Of a stretch of DNA of 64,000 bases, positions 9,226 to 61,697 are shown piece after piece. The notes under the pieces are model-generated. The model did no database searches, was not told the DNA's origin, and was given only the letters and a program-made list of their open reading frames with translations. The stretch is from NCBI GenBank assembly GCA_051306005.1, contig JBPPMJ010000003.1, positions 97,764-161,763 of the forward strand, in the 5' to 3' direction. Positions within the stretch are counted from its first letter, which is position 1. Every line of letters starts with the position of its first letter. A program made the position numbers and the translations under genes. This stretch comes from Minisyncoccota bacterium. Its GTDB lineage: Bacteria; Patescibacteriota; Minisyncoccia; Moranbacterales; UBA1568.

Positions 9226-9849
9226 ATGTATATTCTTTTTGCTATTCAAAACATACTCATTGGTATTTCACTCATACTTTTGACTGGGATTCCATTGGTG
9301 GCATATTTTTTTGGGATTGATTCGACAGTGAGAGGGTATTTGTTTACGCTTTCTTTTGCTTCAGTTTTTTTGGTGATGATTATTCGTCCATTCGCTGATA
9401 TTTTTATCACACAATTGTGGTTACGACGTTTGGTGATTTTGCGTAAGGGCTTCGGAATTTTGTCGGCGTCCATCATTACCGGTTTTATGATAACGTCTAT
9501 TATGTTGTCTCGTTTCACCTATTTGGCAGATATGATAACACCAGCATTTTATTCTTTGGATGGATATGTGTTATTCGCACACTTAGGAGATTTGACGGGA
9601 CTGATTTTGTTATTGACGTCCAACCGTCTATCACAGAAATTGTTGAAACGTAATTGGAAACGGGTACAGCGTCTCTCGTATGTCTATTTTTATGCTGGTG
9701 GCTTGTATGAAGTTTTTGCTCTCAATAGTCTGTTTGCTCTATATGCCGTGTTGTTTGTGACCAACGTGACTGCATTGGCTTGGGCTGTCAAAAAAATTCG
9801 CAAGGGTACAGTAGAAATGAATCGTGAGGGATCAATTCCTTCAAAATGA
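9226..9849 (+). CDS. Polytopic membrane protein; possibly a ferric-reductase-like/MsrQ-like TM domain
   Basis: About 6 TM helices. The LRRLVILRKGFGIL segment resembles the LRRxLG motif of ferric-reductase TM domains. Weak. The ORF track start 9151 is also possible. Confidence 0.35.
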   Translation: MYILFAIQNILIGISLILLTGIPLVAYFFGIDSTVRGYLFTLSFASVFLVMIIRPFADIFITQLWLRRLVILRKGFGILSASIITGFMITSIMLSRFTYLADMITPAFYSLDGYVLFAHLGDLTGLILLLTSNRLSQKLLKRNWKRVQRLSYVYFYAGGLYEVFALNSLFALYAVLFVTNVTALAWAVKKIRKGTVEMNREGSIPSK

Positions 9850-14187: not shown

Positions 14188-14539
14188 TGCGAAACATCAA
14201 GGGATATTATCTTGGAGCAACCAGAAGAACAAAAAGAACATTCTTCTCAATTTGTGAAACAATTTCCTCGAGAAAGCTTTTCAAGAGAACGTGATTCAGT
14301 GGCTACTGCAATTCGTAAAAGACGGCGTGAATGATGTATGGTGTGCCGAACAAGATTCGCGCAATGCATAAAAATAAGTTTGATTATAGCATGGCAAGCA
14401 GTAATGCACCTGCCGACTCTTCCACGGTACACCTTGTTTTTGAATATGTAATGGATAGTACGTACGGCTCTGAACGAAGAAACGAGATCTTTGCCGTTCA
14501 GTTCGTTGATGGTGTCTTTATTGTACCAAGTTAGAACCT

Positions 14540-14930
14540 ATTTCCAAAACAAATGATGTCGCGCACGCGGAGCGCATGGCGGCTCTGACCAAAATCGTAC
14601 GCTCGGAGAAAGTCCCACGCATTGGCGAGTACGCCAGCAACCCCGAAAGAAAAAACACTCCTTGCATTTCTGATTTGGCGGGGGTGAAATTTCTTTTGAA
14701 AAAGGAAAGGATGTTTTTCTTTCGGGGTTCTGCCTGTAAAGATATTCGGGCAGTGCGTGGGGCTTCAATGCGGACTCGGCAAAGCGAAACTATTTTTGCG
14801 GAAGGAAAAGGATTTTGCTTTGCCTCGGCTCTTTTTTGCGAGGATTTGGTATCCGCCGCGCAGGAGGGGTCTGGGGAGGAATGCGGGCGGGTTTCCTTTC
14901 AGTTTTTTTTAATGTTTTCTATGTGAAATA
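14540..14930. repeat. Mosaic intergenic repeat element, copy A (full-length, ~390 bp)
   Basis: Four modules. (1) 14565-14660 is shared with 48990-49200. (2) A long hairpin GCAACCCCGAAAGAAAAA...TTTTTCTTTCGGGGTTCTGC. (3) A core GGATTTTGCTTTGCCTCGGCTCTTTTTTGCGAGGATTTGGTATCCGCCGCGCAGGAGG... shared with 18040-18200 in reverse complement. (4) A tail TTTTTTAATGTTTTCTATGTGAAATAAAAA shared in reverse complement with 16716-16745. Confidence 0.6.
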
Positions 14931-14969
14931 AAAAAAGTCTCTCATGCATAACACATGAGAGACCATTGA

Positions 14970-15563
14970 TTACAACTTGATTTCGTTCGTCGTGACCACA
15001 GAACCAATCTTCGAGAAAAATCGAAGAGACTTTTCATGATCCTCGATTGTGGCCGCAGCACAAGCATCTGACACTACTGTGACTATAAAGTCACGGTCAT
15101 GGGCATCTCGAGCCGCCGCCTCAACTGCAAGATCGGTTGCGACTCCTGCAATGAAGACGTGGGATACGCCCATATTACGCAACATAGTTGCAAGAGGAGT
15201 ATCATAGAATGCACTTACCCGTGATTTCTGAATAGTTAAATCAGAATCAATGTAGTTGACTGAAGAGTGGAATTGAGTTGACCACTCACCAATCTTGAGG
15301 ATACCGAAATCTTTCGCTTTTCCAAAAACAGGCGATGATTTTGGTTGATTGGCGTATGAATGGTCGAATCCAAGTCGGACGAAAACAACTGGACATCCCT
15401 TTTCTCTAAAGATGCCAATCGCTTTGTTGAGGTGGTCAAAGGTAGCGGCTTTTTCAATGAATGCCACATATCCTTTCCCTGCGAGTTTTCCTTTTTGGTC
15501 AACGATTTCGTTGACGAAATCGATGACAAGAAGTGCGCTGTTCATGTTTTTTATCTCCTTCAT
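14970..15563 (-). CDS. Isochorismatase-family cysteine hydrolase (nicotinamidase/YcaC-like)
   Basis: ALLVIDFVNE..., the conserved Lys region, and VTVVSDACAA containing the catalytic Cys are typical of isochorismatase-like hydrolases. Confidence 0.8.
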   Translation of the reverse strand: MKEIKNMNSALLVIDFVNEIVDQKGKLAGKGYVAFIEKAATFDHLNKAIGIFREKGCPVVFVRLGFDHSYANQPKSSPVFGKAKDFGILKIGEWSTQFHSSVNYIDSDLTIQKSRVSAFYDTPLATMLRNMGVSHVFIAGVATDLAVEAAARDAHDRDFIVTVVSDACAAATIEDHEKSLRFFSKIGSVVTTNEIKL

Positions 15564-16531
15564 GGTTTGTTGTTGAGGCACGTAATCGGACGTGCCTGTA
15601 TGATGATTATATCACAACCAGACACAATAAGCTCTATGTCTTGCGGTGATCCGAAATGTTCCTCTATATCCATACCGAGACGAACTATTTTTTGAATTAG
15701 TTCGTTTGATGTAGCATAGCGAACCCTTTCATTCTGTTGTACTTCCACTTCCACTTTGTTTGTGCGAGTGAAATCCTCAAGTGGTACATACGAAATATGC
15801 CATTTTTTTGATCCAAGTTCTGAAGAAATGACCCTGCCTGATTTTCGATCACATAAGTACATGTCTCCTTGAACTTGTCCTGAGACAATGGCTTCGCATG
15901 CCCCATATGCAATTTCCATGCCAAGTATGACATCCGAGTTTTCAATGGGATCTCGGGTCATAACCACACCGCACGAATCTGCTCGACACATTTCTTGAAC
16001 GAGCACACTCATGCGACTTTGTAGATACGAGTGGTCATTCTTTACATCAAACTGCGCAAGACATCGCTCACTAAAGAGTGATGCAAAGCAATGAAGAATT
16101 GCTTCAGGAACCTTGTGATAAGGAACCATTAGAAACGATTCATATTGACCCGCAAGCGAAGCTTCTTTTGAATCTTCGATCAGCATTGTACCTTTTATGA
16201 CTGGGGCACCAGAAGAACGAATGGCGAAAAATTCTGCACTTGGAATATGTAAACCAAGAGCAGAAAAGATTTCATCTTCGTTTTCCAATGTTCGTCGAAC
16301 AATTTCCTCGCTCATACGTGAAGAAATTTCACTGTATGATTTTCCCTCTGAAAGGATTACGCCAAACAAAGGTAGCAATGACTCAATATGCTGTTTATAA
16401 ACAGCATATGTTATGCCAAAACCGCGAGGTGTACGGAGGTTAAGTTCTGCGAGACTCGCAAGACTTTTTACTTTGTTTCCGAGTTCGGGAGAACCTGTTG
16501 CAAGGTCTCCCATTGGGAATATGTGACTCAT
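15560..16531 (-). CDS. PEP/pyruvate-binding (ATP-grasp, PPDK_N-like) domain protein
   Basis: GNKVKSLASLAEL resembles the GGKxANLxEL motif of the N-terminal nucleotide-binding domain of PEP synthase, pyruvate phosphate dikinase and rifampin phosphotransferase. About 320 aa, the typical domain size. There is no downstream TIM-barrel domain. Confidence 0.6.
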   Translation of the reverse strand: MSHIFPMGDLATGSPELGNKVKSLASLAELNLRTPRGFGITYAVYKQHIESLLPLFGVILSEGKSYSEISSRMSEEIVRRTLENEDEIFSALGLHIPSAEFFAIRSSGAPVIKGTMLIEDSKEASLAGQYESFLMVPYHKVPEAILHCFASLFSERCLAQFDVKNDHSYLQSRMSVLVQEMCRADSCGVVMTRDPIENSDVILGMEIAYGACEAIVSGQVQGDMYLCDRKSGRVISSELGSKKWHISYVPLEDFTRTNKVEVEVQQNERVRYATSNELIQKIVRLGMDIEEHFGSPQDIELIVSGCDIIIIQARPITCLNNKP

Positions 16532-16711: not shown

Positions 16712-16765
16712 TTTTATTTTTATTTCACATAGAAAACATTAAAAAATTTGGCGGCTAGGCTTGAT
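16712..16765. repeat. Repeat-family fragment (tail module plus GGCGGCTAGGC module)
   Basis: TTTATTTCACATAGAAAACATTAAAAAA is the reverse complement of 14897-14927. TTTGGCGGCTAGGCT matches the reverse complement of 18049-18063. Confidence 0.55.
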
Positions 16766-16841: not shown

Positions 16842-17051
16842 ATGGCGGATCAAAACACAACTCAACACTCTCTCAAAAAAGACAAGTATGTGAGTACCCG
16901 CGGTGGTAATTCACATTTTCTTGATCTTTTTTGTAGCAAGTGCAACCAGCTTTTGCCCTCTACCAAAAAGACGGGCATGGCTGGTTGCTTCGGATGTACC
17001 TCGATCGAATCTTTGCGCCACAAGAGCTCGCGCTTTTGCAGTCAAAGGTAA
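16842..17051 (+). CDS. Small zinc-ribbon protein (two CxxC pairs, CSKC...CFGC)
   Basis: 69 aa ORF with ATG start and two CxxC motifs 14 residues apart. Confidence 0.35.
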   Translation: MADQNTTQHSLKKDKYVSTRGGNSHFLDLFCSKCNQLLPSTKKTGMAGCFGCTSIESLRHKSSRFCSQR

Positions 17052-17065
17052 GTAGTAAAGCCGAT

Positions 17066-17374
17066 ATGCCGAATCTCAAATGTCCGAAATGCGGCGCACT
17101 CATCGGCACACCGATGGTCTACGAAAAAGAGTCGTCTATGAAAAATGGTGTCAATTTCAGGACAAGTGTTTTTCAATTTCGTCCCTATCATGGCACCGAG
17201 CTGTACCACGATATGATCCTGAAAGGAAGGATTATTGATGAGGTTGTGTACAGCGAGAATTTGTCAACAAACATAGGGAGAAAGCAGTTTAACTTCACGA
17301 GTGGTAATTTCTCCGAAGTATCTGATGAGATTCTTCGTGGATTCATTACCAAAACTAATGGAATAAACCGATGA
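17066..17374 (+). CDS. Hypothetical protein with an N-terminal CxxC (KCPKCG)
   Basis: ORF in the other frame. The track calls a GTG start at 16940, overlapping the previous gene by ~110 nt. The first ATG gives a non-overlapping 102 aa protein. Confidence 0.35.
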   Translation: MPNLKCPKCGALIGTPMVYEKESSMKNGVNFRTSVFQFRPYHGTELYHDMILKGRIIDEVVYSENLSTNIGRKQFNFTSGNFSEVSDEILRGFITKTNGINR

Positions 17375-17904
17375 AAAACACAAATGTAATGTGGGGCGGT
17401 CTTTCTGCGAAAAAGGCAAATGATGCGGAGAATCTTGCACCTCTCCACATAGACACAAATACCGGTAAGTTGGTAGCAGAAATTGAGGCGCAGTGCCGCC
17501 ATATCAACTTTTACAAAACAAACCTTGTAAAGTTTCCGCCATTGGATTCCAAGGGGAAGTTGAGATATCCGACACTTAAAGAGTGCGCATTGTGTTATCC
17601 CGAGTTGCAGGTTGAGCTTCAGTTAGTTAATCCTCGTGTTGTCCTATTGCTTGGCAACAAAACGGCAACCTTCGTTTTCCACCAGCTTGGGTTTCAGATG
17701 CCAAAATTATCTTATACATACCAATCCTTTGAGTATGAAAAAAGGTGGTATGTGCCCATCCATCACCCGTCGTACATCATGGTGTACAAGCGAAAGGAGA
17801 AGGATCGATATATCAAGGCAGTGAAAACTGTTATTGAACAACTTGCGGAGTGCACGCCAAGAATTGGAGACGCTAGAATCTTCCAGACAGATCGGAATCT
17901 ATGA
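17371..17904 (+). CDS. Uracil-DNA glycosylase superfamily protein (family 4/5-like)
   Basis: UDG-fold pattern: ...ECALCYPEL..., VVLLLGNKTA (motif preceding the glycosylase core) and a C-terminal HPSYIMVYKRKEK (HPS motif). Confidence 0.55.
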   Translation: MKNTNVMWGGLSAKKANDAENLAPLHIDTNTGKLVAEIEAQCRHINFYKTNLVKFPPLDSKGKLRYPTLKECALCYPELQVELQLVNPRVVLLLGNKTATFVFHQLGFQMPKLSYTYQSFEYEKRWYVPIHHPSYIMVYKRKEKDRYIKAVKTVIEQLAECTPRIGDARIFQTDRNL

Positions 17905-18039: not shown

Positions 18040-18200
18040 GTTTCTTTTTTATAGCCTAGCCGCCAAAAATCCGCCGCGCATTCCTCCCGTACCCTCCTGC
18101 GCGGCGGATACCAAATCCTCGCAAAAAAGAGCCGAGGCAAAGTAAATCCTTTTTCTCAAACCTGCTTCTTGGCGAAAAACAGGTGTGCGCAAGCGCGCCC
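18040..18200. repeat. Mosaic intergenic repeat element, copy B (core module, inverted relative to copy A)
   Basis: The reverse complement contains GGATTTACTTTGCCTCGGCTCTTTTTTGCGAGGATTTGGTATCCGCCGCGCAGGAGG..GGAGGAATGCGCGGCGG, nearly identical to 14800-14885. Confidence 0.6.
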
Positions 18201-18237
18201 CACTATTTGGCTTTGAAAAAGCCGTTGAGTTCGTTGA

Positions 18238-18312
18238 TGGTGCTCTCAGCAGGAATCGAACCTGCATTGCTTCCTTCGGAGGGAAATGTCCTATCCATTG
18301 AACGATGAGAGC
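18238..18312 (-). tRNA. tRNA-Arg (anticodon CCG), CCA encoded
   Basis: Reverse complement GCTCTCATCGTTCAATGGATAGGACATTTCCCTCCGAAGGAAGCAATGCAGGTTCGATTCCTGCTGAGAGCACCA. Anticodon loop CTCCGAA. Confidence 0.8.
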
Positions 18313-19174: not shown

Positions 19175-19261
19175 GGAGGCGTGTGTGAGTGGTTGAAACA
19201 GACAGTCTTGAAAACTGTTATACCCGGAAGGGTATCGAAGGTTCGAATCCTTCCGCCTCCG
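19175..19261 (+). tRNA. tRNA-Ser (anticodon TGA), long variable arm
   Basis: GGAGGCGTGTGTGAGTGGTTGAAACAGACAGTCTTGAAAACTGTTATACCCGGAAGGGTATCGAAGGTTCGAATCCTTCCGCCTCCG. Anticodon loop CTTGAAA. An AT-rich putative island begins immediately 3' of it. Confidence 0.85.
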
Positions 19262-19362
19262 CAGCTAGCTTGAAGTATCGAGAGACCCGAGAACCCTCTG
19301 TTTAAGCCAAAGAATAAATGGCAAAAAATAGAGAGTACACGGGACTCGAACTCAAGCACAAT

Positions 19363-20048: not shown

Positions 20049-20291
20049 ATGTTTGACGTAGGATTTATTAACTAATTTTTTAAGGTACAAAAAAGGTCCC
20101 CCAACCAAAGCTATAACTCTTTCGAGCTACCCAATGTCCTTTCGGAACACTGACCTACGTCAATAAGTGCCGGTCGGGAGACCGTCTTTATGACGTAGGT
20201 GACTTTATTGCGCCATGCTCACATCGCTATGAGTTTAGGCTGGTTGTATCTGCATTATAGATTTTTAAAGGGCTTTTATCAACTGAATGCT

Positions 20292-21668
20292 TTATTTTAG
20301 GGTGGTTTCATACTCTTTTAGACTTAATGTTTTATTCTTTTTAATCACTAGGCGACTTTTTAGACTGCCTAGAAGTTCTCTCTTTTCAGCCATTTTTCCT
20401 TCTTTGAGAATGTATTTTGCATAGGCACGGATATCAAAAGGGGATTCCTCAGAAGTCTCTACTTTGCCGCTTAGCCGAAGCACTGATTTTTGAAAATGGT
20501 TATAGCGGTTAACCTCATCTTCAAATTGCCTTTTGAGACCAATTTCATTTATATCTATCTTATCGATCAGCTTTGTCATTTCCTCGATTAACAATTCTTC
20601 TCTCAGGTAGCCAAGTTTGCAACTATGATCTCGAGAGCGAGTACATCCGTAGTAAATATAAGTAGCGGTATTTCCATTCTTAAGTTTCTTGTACTTTTCA
20701 TCTGCGGTCACACCTGATCCGCAGAGACCACAAGTTATGAGCCGAGTGAAAGCAAACTCTTTTCCTTCTCTAATAATTCTTGCTCGTTTTAGTTGTTCTT
20801 GTACCAGATCAAAAAGTTCTTTAGAAATAAGGGGCTCATGTTTTCCTTGATACCAGTTACCGCTATTTCTAGGATATTCAAAGACTCCATAGTAAAAACT
20901 CGTTTGGAGTAAACGGTAGAGGTTACTTAGCGACATATGTTTATTACTCTTAGCTTTGAAGTTGAGATCAAACTTGAGCCAGTGGTATACTTTTCGTCCT
21001 GACCAATTTTCGTAAGCTACTTTTTCAAATATTTGTTTTACAATTGCAGATCGCATAGGGTCTATTTCTACGTGACTTTTACGGTCTGGCGTAATAGCGT
21101 TCAGATAACCAGTGGGAGCCATGGTTGGCCACAGTCCCATTTCACACCTCATTCGAAGTCCTCGTTTCACATTGATGCCTCGATTATCATTTTCTAGTTT
21201 TGCTTGCGATCCTAAGATCATCAGGAGGAATTTCTCGTTAGGGGAGTTGCTAAAGCTCTGGCCGTAGGTACGAATTTCATGCAGGAGCTGTTGATCCATG
21301 AGGTCTACTAGAGAACCTAAGTCACCAGCGTTTCTACTAAGTCTGTCTGGCGCCCATGTCAGAATAGCGTTGAAGCGACCTAAGCGAATATCATTTATAA
21401 GTTCGTTGTAAACTGGTCGTCCGCCTGAATTTTTAGCCGAGTGGCTTTCTCTCCGAATTTCTACAATCTCCAATCCATCCCTCTCGGCTATTTGAAGCAT
21501 CTCCTTAATCTGAGAGTCGATAGAAAGGACTTGCCGTTCCTCGGATTCCGTCGATTTTCGAGCGTAGAGGCAGTACTTCATCTGTAGGGGAGCTTCTATA
21601 TTCTTTGCCTCTGAAGCTGCCCGTAATTGCGTTATATGGTCGTTCATATCCCAATGAATGACAGACAT
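20292..21668 (-). CDS. Large serine recombinase (resolvase domain + recombinase domain + zinc ribbon)
   Basis: N-terminal resolvase catalytic region YARKSTESEERQVLSIDSQ (aligns with YxRVST...S-x2-Q; the catalytic Ser is in KST). A recombinase domain and a C-terminal Cys cluster (CGLCGS...C) follow. 458 aa. Confidence 0.85.
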   Translation of the reverse strand: MSVIHWDMNDHITQLRAASEAKNIEAPLQMKYCLYARKSTESEERQVLSIDSQIKEMLQIAERDGLEIVEIRRESHSAKNSGGRPVYNELINDIRLGRFNAILTWAPDRLSRNAGDLGSLVDLMDQQLLHEIRTYGQSFSNSPNEKFLLMILGSQAKLENDNRGINVKRGLRMRCEMGLWPTMAPTGYLNAITPDRKSHVEIDPMRSAIVKQIFEKVAYENWSGRKVYHWLKFDLNFKAKSNKHMSLSNLYRLLQTSFYYGVFEYPRNSGNWYQGKHEPLISKELFDLVQEQLKRARIIREGKEFAFTRLITCGLCGSGVTADEKYKKLKNGNTATYIYYGCTRSRDHSCKLGYLREELLIEEMTKLIDKIDINEIGLKRQFEDEVNRYNHFQKSVLRLSGKVETSEESPFDIRAYAKYILKEGKMAEKRELLGSLKSRLVIKKNKTLSLKEYETTLK

Positions 21669-21700
21669 CCCTAAACTAGTCTAGGCCCCTCCAAAAGCCC

Positions 21701-23158
21701 CTAAAATCCCTCTGGTTTCTCAGCAAAACCTCGGGAGCCTCTCTTATTGAGTTGTATGGCTTTCCCAGCCAATATGGAAAAAGCGTCTGCAAGATCATCG
21801 TGCTTTTCCTTTCCAAACCCCACGAGATTTTCTAGAAGATCCTCACAACCACTTTCTGGAAATTGAATTTTACCAGAAGTTACTAAATTACTTACAGACA
21901 TTAAACGGGCTCGTTTATCAGAAAATACTTGTACAGTTTCTGTACGATAGTAGTCTCTGTTTAATTGTTCCGCCGCAACACGTTGATAGCCAACGTCTTC
22001 AATGAGGATAATAACTTTTCCGTAGTGTTGAGTGGAATCGTGAAGCATTTTTATTGCAGAGAGTGTGTCTTCAAAATTTAATCTTTTCTCTATTGGATTC
22101 GGAAGTATGTATATTCTAAAGTCTTCTCCATACCCAGTAACTAATCCTACTACAAGAGCAGTAAAGTCAGCTGTTGATTTTTGGGAAATAGCTAAGTCAG
22201 TTCCAATGAGGACTCTTTTCCAGTGTTTGTCTGGTAGATTTTTATAATATTTAATTTGGTCATAGCTGAAGATTTGGTCGTCGTCAGGAATGATACGGAG
22301 GAGATATTCTCTTTGCCAAGCAATTTCGTTTCCAACTTTTTTTCTTTCTTTCTCAATCTCTGATTCATCGAGGTACTTCCCCTTCCAAAGAATCTCATCA
22401 TTTTCATTTAGTAGTGGATATTTCTTAAAAACTCCTTCACCAGATCCTTCTTCAATATCACTCTTTAAATGCATAAGGAGGGAATCTTCGTGAAGAAGAT
22501 TTCCGACTATCACCAGCTTGGTATTTTTATCACCAAGAGGAATAATTTCTCCTTTAAGCCAGTTGTATGTTTTTTGCCTCCCTTCTTTAGTTTTAGCTGA
22601 AGCCATATCTTCCACATCGTCACCGATAATCAGATCGGGACGGTGTTGTCCGTGACGCATCCCACGAATACTTTGTTCTGAAGAAGCAGCTGTAATACGG
22701 GCATTCATATTGGAAAAAACGAGTGAAGTTGATCCCCATTCGTCACTTTCTTCTTGAAATGGACCGAGGTCATTTTTAAGTAAGGTATTATTCTCGAGCT
22801 CTCTTTTTAAGTTAGTCATATGTTGCTTTGCCTGAGTTCTTGTTTGGCAAAGGATAACAACAAACTTCTTTTGCTGTTTACCAAGGATTGCCCAGATAGG
22901 ATAGGAAGTGGTAATGATAGTGGATTTACCAGATCCACGGAAAGCTACGATATAGAGGTTTTTGATAGTCTCGTCTTCCGTAAGGTTGAAAATTTCCCTT
23001 TGAAACTGAGCAGTTTCATACTTTACATAGTGAGCAAAGTAAAGGTGAAAAAACATAAAATGACTTTGCTGAGTAATAGCAATACGTACAGTTCTATCGG
23101 CAATCATTCTATCTATTACCTCATCAGGTATTTGTTTACTTATTTTTGACATCTCCAT
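21701..23158 (-). CDS. Phage terminase large subunit
   Basis: Walker A AFRGSGKST, ATPase coupling motifs, and a C-terminal RNase-H-like nuclease region (IGTDLAISQKSTADFTALVV...). Tightly followed (33 nt) by the recombinase gene. Confidence 0.75.
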   Translation of the reverse strand: MEMSKISKQIPDEVIDRMIADRTVRIAITQQSHFMFFHLYFAHYVKYETAQFQREIFNLTEDETIKNLYIVAFRGSGKSTIITTSYPIWAILGKQQKKFVVILCQTRTQAKQHMTNLKRELENNTLLKNDLGPFQEESDEWGSTSLVFSNMNARITAASSEQSIRGMRHGQHRPDLIIGDDVEDMASAKTKEGRQKTYNWLKGEIIPLGDKNTKLVIVGNLLHEDSLLMHLKSDIEEGSGEGVFKKYPLLNENDEILWKGKYLDESEIEKERKKVGNEIAWQREYLLRIIPDDDQIFSYDQIKYYKNLPDKHWKRVLIGTDLAISQKSTADFTALVVGLVTGYGEDFRIYILPNPIEKRLNFEDTLSAIKMLHDSTQHYGKVIILIEDVGYQRVAAEQLNRDYYRTETVQVFSDKRARLMSVSNLVTSGKIQFPESGCEDLLENLVGFGKEKHDDLADAFSILAGKAIQLNKRGSRGFAEKPEGF

Positions 23159-48798: not shown

Positions 48799-48959
48799 AA
48801 TTAGGTATTACTAAACTACTGGTCTAGAAAAGAGACATGACTGTGTCTTATAAGACATACCCTGTATCGCGTCTCATTTGTCTCAAAAGCCTGACCCGAG
48901 AACCCTAATTTACTATACTGCCAGTACCTCTAAGAAACCCCTCAACAGCCCCATACTTA

Positions 48960-49260
48960 CAAGGTCTAGACCCGACTAGCCCGCCAAATCGTACTTTCAA
49001 TTTCGCTGAATGTAAAACTTGGAGATGTTTTTTTGACGAAGTTTGAATGCATTTCGGACAAAATCCGCAGGATTTTGACGACTAATCGCACGTGCGGAGC
49101 GCGTGGTGGCTCGAAACTGCCTCGTACGCTCGTATCGTCCCGCCACTGCCTCGCAGAGCCTCGGCAACCCCGAAAGAAAGACACCCTTTCCACTTTCAAG
49201 AAAAATTTCACCCCCGTCAATTTTCATTTTTTACGAAATCGGAATATTGTGCCTCTGTGT
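48960..49260. repeat. Mosaic intergenic repeat element, copy C (module 1)
   Basis: CGCACGTGCGGAGCGCGTGGTGGCTC...TCGTACGCTCG...GCAACCCCGAAAGAAAG... parallels 14565-14660. GAAAAATTTCACCCCCG is the inverted form of GGCGGGGGTGAAATTTC in copy A. Confidence 0.5.
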
Positions 49261-57281: not shown

Positions 57282-57357
57282 GGGCCCTTAGCTTAGTTGG
57301 TAGAGCGCCGCATTTGCAATGCGGAGGTCGTCGGTTCGAATCCGACAGGGTCCACAC
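57282..57357 (+). tRNA. tRNA-Ala (anticodon TGC)
   Basis: GGGCCCTTAGCTTAGTTGGTAGAGCGCCGCATTTGCAATGCGG...GGTTCGAATCCGACAGGGTCCA. Anticodon loop TTTGCAA. The 3' end / CCA position is slightly ambiguous. Confidence 0.75.
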
Positions 57358-57437
57358 CAGCCAATATTGAGTTTTTTGGATGTGCATGGTATCGTAGAAA
57401 ATGGTTGTTTTTCAGTTTACAACCATGAGTATATTGT

Positions 57438-57511
57438 GGGCGATTAGCTCAGTTGGTTAGAGCGCGACACTGATAATGTCGAGGTCTCAAGTTCGAATCT
57501 TGAATCGCCCA
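57438..57511 (+). tRNA. tRNA-Ile (anticodon GAT)
   Basis: GGGCGATTAGCTCAGTTGGTTAGAGCGCGACACTGATAATGTCG...TTCGAATCTTGAATCGCCCA. Anticodon loop CTGATAA. Confidence 0.8.
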
Positions 57512-57542
57512 CCGAAATGCGGTATGATAGAAGAAAGTATGA

Positions 57543-57616
57543 AGCGGGGTAGAGCAGTCTGGCAGCTCGTCTGGCTCATAACCAGAAGGTCGGTGGTTCG
57601 AATCCACCCCCCGCAA
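57543..57616 (+). tRNA. tRNA-Met (anticodon CAT), initiator-like
   Basis: AGCGGGGTAGAGCAGTCTGGCAGCTCGTCTGGCTCATAACCAGAAGGTCGGTGGTTCGAATCCACCCCCCGCAA. 1:72 A-A mismatch. Closely resembles E. coli tRNA-fMet except the anticodon stem has 2 rather than 3 G-C pairs. Confidence 0.7.
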
Positions 57617-57705
57617 CAAACGGAATATGAGTGAGGTATAGTTGTGGAGAATCAATAAACTGTTTTGTCCGGGTGCCTGTGCGCTTTTTTGTTTTGACAA
57701 TGTAT

Positions 57706-57782
57706 GCCAGGGTAGCTCAGTTGGTTAGAGCACGGGACTCATAAGCCCGGGGTCGTGAGTTCGAATCTCACCCCTGGTACCA
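57706..57782 (+). tRNA. tRNA with CAT anticodon (elongator Met or lysidine-modified Ile2), CCA encoded
   Basis: GCCAGGGTAGCTCAGTTGGTTAGAGCACGGGACTCATAAGCCCGGGGTCGTGAGTTCGAATCTCACCCCTGGTACCA. Anticodon loop CTCATAA. Confidence 0.7.
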
Positions 57783-57819
57783 AGACTGAATAATAAGATA
57801 GAAAATGAAGTGACATTAC

Positions 57820-57896
57820 GGGGGCGTAGCTCAGCTGGTTAGAGCGACTGCCTGTCACGCAGTAGGTCGCCGGTTCGAGTCCGGTCGCTCCCGCCA
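57820..57896 (+). tRNA. tRNA-Asp (anticodon GTC), CCA encoded
   Basis: GGGGGCGTAGCTCAGCTGGTTAGAGCGACTGCCTGTCACGCAGTAGGTCGCCGGTTCGAGTCCGGTCGCTCCCGCCA. Confidence 0.8.
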
Positions 57897-61092: not shown

Positions 61093-61512
61093 ATGATATT
61101 TTTTGACCTGTATTGTTGTGGCGAACTCTACATTAGTCTAGAACTTGTAACTACCGAGTATTATAATGCTTTTTCGAGGTTATGTCTAGAATGGGAGTTT
61201 GAGGAGATTGGGTTACCATTTTTGGCGAATACAACTTTTGGGCGAAAGAGCAATAATCGGTTCGAACTTGCCATTGCCTTTCTAAAAGAAGCCGACCAAT
61301 CCGAAAAATACGCTCAACAAGAAAATCCCGAAAGGATTCGGGATTTTCTCAAAAAGATTGGTTCGAACTTCCGCATTGCCGGCCGCACTTTGTTTTTGGA
61401 TTTCAAAAATGCCTTCAAAATTGCGAAAAAACACCATGCCGAGGTGCTTTGCGCCGAGGCTGTTTCTTACGATTTCACAAAAAGTGAAAATTGGCGGGCG
61501 TCATCGGTCTAG
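61093..61512 (+). CDS. Hypothetical protein (contains an internal DNA direct repeat)
   Basis: 139 aa ORF. Contains a 20 nt direct repeat GGTTCGAACTT..ATTGCC at ~61253 and ~61361, and a perfect palindrome GAAAATCCCGAAAGGATTCGGGATTTTC. Coding status uncertain. Confidence 0.3.
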   Translation: MIFFDLYCCGELYISLELVTTEYYNAFSRLCLEWEFEEIGLPFLANTTFGRKSNNRFELAIAFLKEADQSEKYAQQENPERIRDFLKKIGSNFRIAGRTLFLDFKNAFKIAKKHHAEVLCAEAVSYDFTKSENWRASSV

Positions 61513-61697
61513 AACTTTGAGAAATCAAGCCGTTGAGGGATTTCTTAGGGGTCTTGGCCGACGAGCGGATTGAGGAGGTCGGGTCGCGATTTGAGGGGTA
61601 AAACGAGACAAATGAGACAACAGGACAGATTCTGTCTCATTCTACTATTTGAGACAGCGACGTGTCACATGAAATACTAGTACCCTACAATGACTCA

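Follow-up and report, generated by a model that had tools for sequence, protein, structure and literature searches.

Structured inverted repeats in a Patescibacteria genome: probable arms of a decayed serine-recombinase cassette island

Repeat copies and neighboring genes in the window

In the window (the whole 64-kb stretch of DNA that was analyzed), an aminotransferase gene and a convergent isochorismatase-family gene are separated by an intergenic repeat, copy A (14510-14934), which is similar to sequences at 16717-16746 (site D), 18054-18158 (copy C) and 49027-49225 (fragment B). The initial annotation had proposed a repeat family at several loci, with copies beside tRNA genes, and both statements are borne out, as copy C abuts a tRNA-Arg gene (18238-18312). 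The left edge of copy A, which had been placed at 14540, is moved here to its true boundary at 14510. For brevity the repeat unit is called an arm below.

The relationships between the copies were identified by self-BLAST and with a repeat finder. Positions 14803-14894 match 18156-18067 in inverted orientation with 90% identity over 93 nt (E 6e-29), including an identical run of 51 nt, in agreement with the core first noted to recur inverted near 18 kb. The 30-bp tail of copy A (14905-14934) likewise recurs inverted and without a mismatch (30/30, E 6e-10) at 16746-16717, as had been described, and 14675-14729 match 49220-49166 in inverted orientation (87%, E 1e-13). The claim that the start of copy A recurs near 49 kb was backed by a profile search (49027-49225, 67 bits), but the direct match of 14562-14652 to 49087-49179 in self-BLAST is weak (71%, E 0.007). 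The module joined to the tail, TTTGGCGGCTAGGC at 16747-16760, had been assigned to the 49-kb copy as well; instead, its reverse complement is found in the 18-kb copy, at 18054-18067, and this GGCGGCTAGGC module is the link between the two sites. The hairpin of ~100 nt that had been reported in copy A is real (14638-14729), but it is not perfect, the outer stem matching at about 27/31. Overall, a genuine, modular, non-coding repeat family is supported, and its features are listed together with their neighbors in Table 1.

Rfam searches of the window identified tRNAs and one LOOT RNA, and nothing else. The LOOT RNA (20114-20241, minus strand, 49.8 bits) is directly 3' of the recombinase gene of a prophage-like low-GC block (20114-23158, extending to about 36 kb) that includes an intact gene for a large serine recombinase (20292-21668, minus strand) and the gene for the terminase large subunit (21701-23158). 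A tRNA-Ser gene is at 19175-19262, and a cluster of five tRNA genes (Ala, Ile, Met, Met, Asp) lies at 57282-57896 with no ribosomal RNA genes nearby.

Table 1. Arm-related features and their immediate neighbors in the window.
Feature	Coordinates	Strand	Remarks
Recombinase-unit inverted-repeat remnant and TGGTG core (GCCGTTCAGTTCGTTGATGGTG)	14493-14514	+	Direct repeat of 18221-18242
Arm A, full-length, outer end to tail T	14510-14934	+	nhmmer 14510-14912, 411 bits
Outward promoter-like site, TTGGAA-16 nt-TGgTACAAT	14520-14547	-	Also in L045 and L089
Domain 1, closing helix 14611-14620/14755-14764 enclosing three hairpins	14605-14770	+	
Hairpins H0, H1 and H2 within domain 1	14622-14637, 14638-14729, 14730-14753	+	
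Hairpin H3	14775-14828	+	17/19 pairs compensated across the family
H4 (14853-14891) with invariant loop GGAGGGGTCTGGGGAGGAA, then T-rich tract	14853-14904	+	Terminator-like
Tail T, cassette-specific inner end of arm A	14905-14934	+	Perfect inverted copy at 16717-16746
Cargo 1: isochorismatase-family gene (14970-15581) and PPDK_N-domain gene (15560-16531)	14970-16531	-	
Site D: T' (16717-16746) fused to tail G (16747-16760)	16717-16760	+	
Cargo 2: 126-aa ORF and uracil-DNA-glycosylase-superfamily gene (17371-17904)	16994-17904	+	
Arm C, truncated, 3' third: tail G' (18054-18067), H4 (18071-18107), 3' strand of H3	18054-18158	-	
Recombinase-unit inverted-repeat remnant, about 80 nt	18159-18242	+	Fused to arm C, abutting the tRNA
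tRNA-Arg(CCG)	18238-18312	-	3' CACCA end is the putative attachment point
Fragment B, decayed 5' half of an arm, 3' part missing	49027-49225	+	

Distribution and fold of the arm

A full arm is ~370-400 nt long. The unit is non-coding, as its variability has no codon periodicity and the lengths of indels are not biased to multiples of three, and on the same grounds a coding reading of the internal ORFs, including the long open frames on the minus strand, was rejected, as the initial annotation had anticipated. One such spurious ORF in copy A had 160 matches in the protein database, all of them hypothetical proteins whose reading frames slip relative to one another, and every organism name given for them was Patescibacteria. 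With an alignment of these matches as the query, at least 169 confirmed stretches were identified at 78 loci in GTDB genomes (the related loci carry L numbers here), spanning Parcubacteria classes, Levy- and Gottesmanbacteria (Microgenomates), Berkelbacteria and Peregrinibacteria. The family is not confined to the window, which would have suggested a local duplication. Arm A scored 177 bits and 127 bits with two covariance models, R1 and R2, respectively, and is 86% identical over 406 nt to an arm of a Zambryskibacteria locus (L006). Arms are 80-96% identical in nucleotide sequence, whereas housekeeping proteins are 43-55% identical in amino acid sequence to those of the same CPR MAG. MAGs titled Gammaproteobacteria, Nitrospirota and Alphaproteobacteria (L037, L083 and L085) also carry the CPR arm; these contigs may be mis-binned, and the arm could serve as a flag for CPR contamination.

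An exact 20-mer from the core shared by copies A and C was found in a single JGI metagenome contig (L004) and had no match in the GTDB genomes, a 24-mer search of IMG/VR gave no match, and neither did BLAST searches with arm A against the INPHARED phages and the PLSDB plasmids. A known non-coding RNA family had been named as an outcome to check for; with Rfam 15, no model reached the gathering threshold for the arms, either in the window or across 12 related loci, and the best matches by E-value were chance microRNA-type hairpins. RNase P RNA, tmRNA, SRP RNA, 6S RNA and the T-box were considered on account of short motif resemblances and rejected, as there was no Rfam match and no correspondence between the conserved regions. 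Searches of the literature, some of them for sequence strings, returned no description of the arms or of the island architecture set out below, and a paper on CPR genomic islands mentions neither arms nor recombinases (PMC12455944).

The outer boundary of the arm is sharp, with NN followed by GTGTCTCTATTGTACCAA... and unrelated flanks in about 55 copies. The outer end (GTGTCTCTATTGTACC...) carries an outward extended -10 promoter-like site, for which there are TTGAAA/TATAAT variants in other arm types and a predicted start at about the CACCA boundary; read backwards, the outer end finishes in ...GAGACACCA and is tRNA-like. Going inward, the predicted fold consists of a small hairpin, a closing helix of 10-12 bp around H0, H1 and H2, then H3 and finally H4, which has a GC stem and an invariant, GGAGG-rich loop (GGAGGGGUCUGGGGAGGAA) and is followed by a T-rich tail. 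No inward promoter, and none of the sigma-70 type, was found in the first 100 nt of the arm. The 296-nt core of copy A had a folding energy of -125 kcal/mol (z = -5.6), which is 33 kcal/mol better for the plus strand than the -92 kcal/mol of the minus strand. As G-U pairs also outnumber A-C pairs (59 vs 13) and several helices depend on conserved U-G pairs, the strand running from the outer to the inner end is considered to be the folded one.

Realignment of 73 and 74 copies with R1 and R2 gave compensated changes at 57 of 97 pairs. In domain 1, where 94% of the cells pair, 27 of 61 pairs were double-changed, versus 12.4 +/- 1.7 after shuffling and 9-15 when the pairing partners were slid, and its closing helix was compensated at 11/12 pairs. 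The corresponding number for H3 and H4 together was 30 of 36, versus 20.8 +/- 1.4 (shuffled) and 12-19 (slid), with all seven stem pairs of H4 compensated and at least five fully compensated versions of that stem, indicating that structure is conserved beyond sequence in these two hairpins. None of 500 shuffles matched these counts, which are somewhat inflated by having been made on alignments fitted by covariance models, although the margin is large. A short variant of the arm (L088:240-513; L089:5832-6185 and 9324-9677) keeps the outer end and H3/H4, while a non-homologous sequence takes the place of domain 1 and folds in turn into three small hairpins enclosed by a closing helix. The strong covariation and the strand-specific G-U pairs fit a structured RNA family, which the initial annotation had offered as its alternative.

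These observations raise the question of whether the arm is simply a stand-alone gene for a structured small RNA, trans-acting or housekeeping, that was duplicated and used as an integration hotspot, so that RNA function rather than mobility explains its conservation. Such a gene would be consistent with strong covariation in every helix, a strand-asymmetric fold, the invariant H4 loop with a T-run after it, and the extreme conservation of the sequence. We find this explanation doubtful, however, given that the genomic position differs in every genome, the arms are paired and inverted around cargo (see below), no inward promoter was found, non-homologous hairpins replace domain 1 in some arms, and the nucleotide identity is above what vertical descent would allow for lineages with 43-55% amino acid identity in housekeeping proteins.

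Inverted arm pairs, their cargo and the adjoining recombinase

Inverted pairs of arms were identified at 16 loci, with the partner 1.5-6.9 kb away. These are 16 of the 20 loci that have either a pair or >7 kb of downstream sequence; the other four have a solitary arm despite having >7 kb downstream. Of the 78 GTDB-locus contigs, 38 end within 150 nt past the arm and 8 more within 1.5 kb. Within a genome, the two partner arms share 95-100% identity over 306-426 nt, and their outer ends face outward, with 1.5-7 kb of variable accessory genes between them. At L004, for instance, two copies of the arm form a perfect inverted repeat of 373 nt with Hsp20, HtrA and sigma-factor genes between them, and a large serine recombinase gene adjoins. 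The cargo is unrelated from locus to locus, and includes an ABC transporter, thymidylate-synthase/QueC/CYTH genes, LysE with an LD-carboxypeptidase, a VanY/M15 peptidase with a beta-lactamase-family gene (L089:6251-9307), and, in L085:10569-13068 and L064:10298-17081, an AlwI-type restriction-modification pair and SAM synthetase with seryl-tRNA synthetase. From a co-oriented arm, the distance to the start of the first cargo gene is 30-100 nt.

Short-read MAGs are known to be prone to mis-joins at perfect inverted repeats, and same-strain contigs in public read assemblies (Logan) end at 18121, inside arm C, as might be expected if the repeats were a local duplication or an artefact of assembly in this one contig. 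The probability of either is nonetheless negligible: the arm is present in >80 independent assemblies from many studies, among them contigs of 155-717 kb, and these long contigs have the same layout.

The initial annotation had favored a MITE-like or REP-like element, that is, a non-autonomous transposon whose dispersed copies are moved in trans by a transposase that binds the hairpins. The sharp outer end, the several partial copies in the window, the stable hairpins and the breaking of assemblies at the element would all be in keeping with this. But the arm is a single unit whose outer end (GTGTCTCTATTGTACC...) and inner end (H4 and its T-rich tail) are unrelated, so that it has no terminal inverted repeats of its own, and at about 55 outer ends, and likewise at both ends of pairs, there was no direct repeat beyond the TG/GTG core and hence no target-site duplication. 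In addition, the units are inverted pairs around cargo beside a serine recombinase and a tRNA, and one or two pairs were seen per contig in the 20-kb slices of long contigs that were read, with two spurious-ORF calls on one contig of 717 kb. Double-stranded binding sites would not be expected to have helices that depend on G-U pairs or a long-range closing helix, and REP/BIME elements are short (20-40 nt) imperfect palindromes, as opposed to a unit of 370-400 nt with a multi-helix fold. A MITE-like or REP-like origin is therefore very unlikely.

A gene for a large serine recombinase adjoins the outer end of one arm at L004, L005, L008, L018, L045, L064, L065 and L070, and in the usual intact layout it lies between the 3' end of a tRNA gene and that arm. 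These arm-associated recombinases form a distinct family with Resolvase, Recombinase and zinc-ribbon domains, and are 43-74% identical to one another and 35% identical to the prophage recombinase of the window. Their nearest NCBIfam models are CcrB and XisF, both far below the cutoffs (CcrB 117 bits vs a cutoff of 900). No LOOT RNA was found beside them. At E <= 1e-40 the recombinase family comprises at least 7,898 members, and those annotated with an organism are all Patescibacteria.

Wherever the flanks were compared (L004, L005, L008, L042, L045, L064, L070 and L071), the recombinase gene is bracketed by inverted repeats of its own, which are 100-173 nt long and 97-100% identical (e.g. L004:3692-3828/5390-5526), and such repeats also bracket the gene in L087-L089. 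They include the 3' coding end of the recombinase gene itself and terminator-like hairpins, and the far terminus overlaps the tRNA 3' end by 3-7 nt. Many database contigs with the recombinase gene are only 1.7-2.5 kb long, a size that would be expected if assemblies break at these inverted repeats. In a reciprocal test that started from the recombinase, four long contigs were pulled, three of which could be assessed, and all three had the order tRNA, repeat, recombinase, repeat, arm outer end; one of the loci (L089) shows the complete island layout. On the outward side of distal arms, an intrinsic terminator often comes after CACCA, as in a native tRNA trailer, and from this likeness we infer that insertion takes place at the CACCA end of tRNA genes.

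Departures from the usual layout were also identified. At L042, the neighbors of a recombinase unit are a tRNA and an inverted tRNA-like fragment, with no adjoining arm, and at L046 the recombinase has the opposite orientation and reads into the arm, so that this junction of recombinase 3' end and arm could be attP-like. The recombinase unit may accordingly be an element distinct from the arm-bracketed cassette, with which it has a target in common. It may be IS-like and autonomous, with CACCA ends, arm ends among them, as its targets, and would then not belong to a single island with the arms. At L067:338-2899, a recombinase 61% identical to the prophage recombinase of the window precedes a full arm by about 850 nt, both in one orientation, and another recombinase type may thus also be associated with arms.

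With a recombinase adjacent to arms that flank cassettes, the arms might instead be sites of recombination that fold as single-stranded DNA, like the attC of integrons, and are read on one strand during uptake or replication. That one strand alone folds well, that structure is conserved beyond sequence in H3 and H4 and that no promoter was found for the folded strand would agree with this. Large serine recombinases, however, act on double-stranded sites of about 40-50 bp, which are short duplexes in comparison with arms of about 400 nt; the conserved helices are rich in G-T wobbles, which are weak in DNA; and the arms are inverted, whereas the sites of integron arrays are direct. We regard this explanation as quite unlikely.

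The probable cassette island, its decay and its proposed mechanism

Taken together, we consider it likely that the repeats belong, as its arms, to a cassette-type genomic island widespread among the Patescibacteria (CPR). This would be a serine-recombinase cassette island that carries a new structured-RNA candidate. Neither an empty site nor an excised circle was recovered, and its mobility and its crossover point are what we infer.

The order in the window is repeat remnant, arm A, T, cargo 1, T'.G, cargo 2, G', arm C, recombinase-repeat remnant and tRNA-Arg. This island is decayed: arm A is intact, the recombinase is deleted, arm C is truncated and site D is a probable scar. About 80 nt are all that survive in the window of the arm-associated recombinase unit, and the C-terminus of the L004 recombinase matches 18183-18242 (tblastn), while the remnant at the outer end of arm A belongs to the sequence class of the recombinase gene 3' end in L004, L045 and L046. 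The nested order K.T ... T'.G ... G'.K' matches the expected remains of a two-cassette array, and an intact array of this kind, with two back-to-back arms, was observed in L042. Site D thus appears to be the scar of two lost back-to-back arms between two cassettes. We propose that a palindrome of roughly 800 nt, formed by the two arms, would have been deleted down to its non-palindromic tails, giving site D, and that a later, second deletion would have removed the recombinase together with two thirds of arm C. Decay of a two-cassette array, rather than a shuffling of independent modules, is the best explanation of the pattern that had been described as a mosaic.

Fragment B is a separate decayed fragment that is unrelated to the remains of the island, and a short homology marks its junction with a weak, unrelated repeat. 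Within its H1, the interior (49166-49220) is reverse-complemented relative to all 73 other copies examined, which resembles a flip/flop inversion between stem arms. A second, weaker inverted repeat (about 65-74% identity; 48920-49000 and 61440-61560) with recurring GTCTAGAAC motifs flanks fragment B and sits in a 620-nt gap upstream of a gene for an HtrA-like protease. The 61.5-kb region was considered as the 'empty site' of fragment B and rejected, as it has only the weak second repeat, joined at a short homology.

The closest analogues of the island are SCC elements, integrons, composite transposons with inverted IS elements and tRNA-targeted islands, and each of them fails at least one defining feature. 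As in SCC, a large serine recombinase lies beside variable cargo at the 3' end of a conserved gene, and the best NCBIfam match of the arm-associated recombinase is CcrB. It is not a Ccr orthologue, however, as the bit score already shows, and the target is the CCA end of a tRNA rather than rlmH; SCC has short terminal repeats in place of 400-nt structured inverted arms, and here the recombinase gene has long inverted repeats of its own. Integrons share variable, promoter-poor cargo delimited by conserved folded non-coding elements and a dedicated recombinase at one end of the array, and two-cassette arrays exist here (L042 and the window), but IntI is a tyrosine recombinase, not a serine recombinase, each integron cassette has one directly oriented attC of 60-140 nt as opposed to arms of about 400 nt inverted around each cassette, and the fold of the arm contains G-U pairs. 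In composite transposons (Tn10/Tn5), MITE-flanked units and integron mobilization units, identical inverted elements, each with an outward-facing end promoter, also bracket the cargo; the arm, in contrast, encodes no transposase, is without terminal inverted repeats of its own and has no visible target-site duplication. Islands that target tRNA genes, including the tycheposons of Prochlorococcus, have in common with the island described here insertion at the tRNA 3' end, a tRNA-adjacent recombinase and exchangeable cargo, but their integrases are of the tyrosine (or another) type, their repeats of the tRNA 3' end are direct, and they are without structured inverted arms. Two further likenesses are suggested by the sequence. 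A short RNA from an outward promoter that would be complementary to the 3' end of the recombinase mRNA recalls RNA-OUT of IS10, except that the pairing would be at the 3' end of the mRNA and not the 5' end. A recombinase gene between perfect inverted repeats is reminiscent of hin in the Hin/Gin systems, although here it encodes a large serine recombinase and not a small invertase, and the alternative orientation was seen only in L046.

In the mechanism that we propose for the cassette island, the recombinase would insert at CACCA ends, either those of tRNA genes or the tRNA-like outer end of an arm. The arms would stop incoming transcription and control or help to express the cargo, with H4 blocking read-through into it, and may offer GGAGG motifs ahead of the first cargo gene. 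The outward promoter would give rise to a short RNA that is ended inside the recombinase repeat and is antisense to the 3' end of the recombinase gene. Following DNA uptake, homologous recombination in both arms would exchange the cargo; Saccharibacteria are known to be naturally competent. With arms that are inverted and nearly identical across lineages, cargo could be swapped without looping out, and the arms would be inverted because direct repeats would delete the cargo. Exchange of this kind would explain why the arms are 80-96% identical despite an identity of 43-55% in housekeeping proteins, and also why no transposase is needed.

It is conceivable, but rather unlikely, that the arm transcript is a working partner of the recombinase, as a scaffold, a guide or a sensor of the integrated or excised state, in which case it would perhaps be made only as the 3' UTR of the recombinase in a circular or flipped state, as at L046. 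If true, this would be an RNA-dependent system of cassette capture and exchange that is specific to CPR bacteria, and the tRNA-like outer ends would be portable attachment sites.

How the tiny, host-dependent genomes of CPR bacteria gain and swap accessory genes is poorly understood, and the arm-bracketed element may be a common vehicle of such exchange, with a cargo that ranges over restriction-modification genes, transporters, stress proteins, cell-wall enzymes and a beta-lactamase-family gene. The arms are in themselves a new and well-supported candidate for a structured RNA that is far more conserved than housekeeping proteins of the same genome. They explain many of the contig breaks in CPR MAGs and could be used to mark CPR DNA, and, together with a serine recombinase that targets tRNA genes, such homology arms are obvious parts for genetic tools in CPR organisms.
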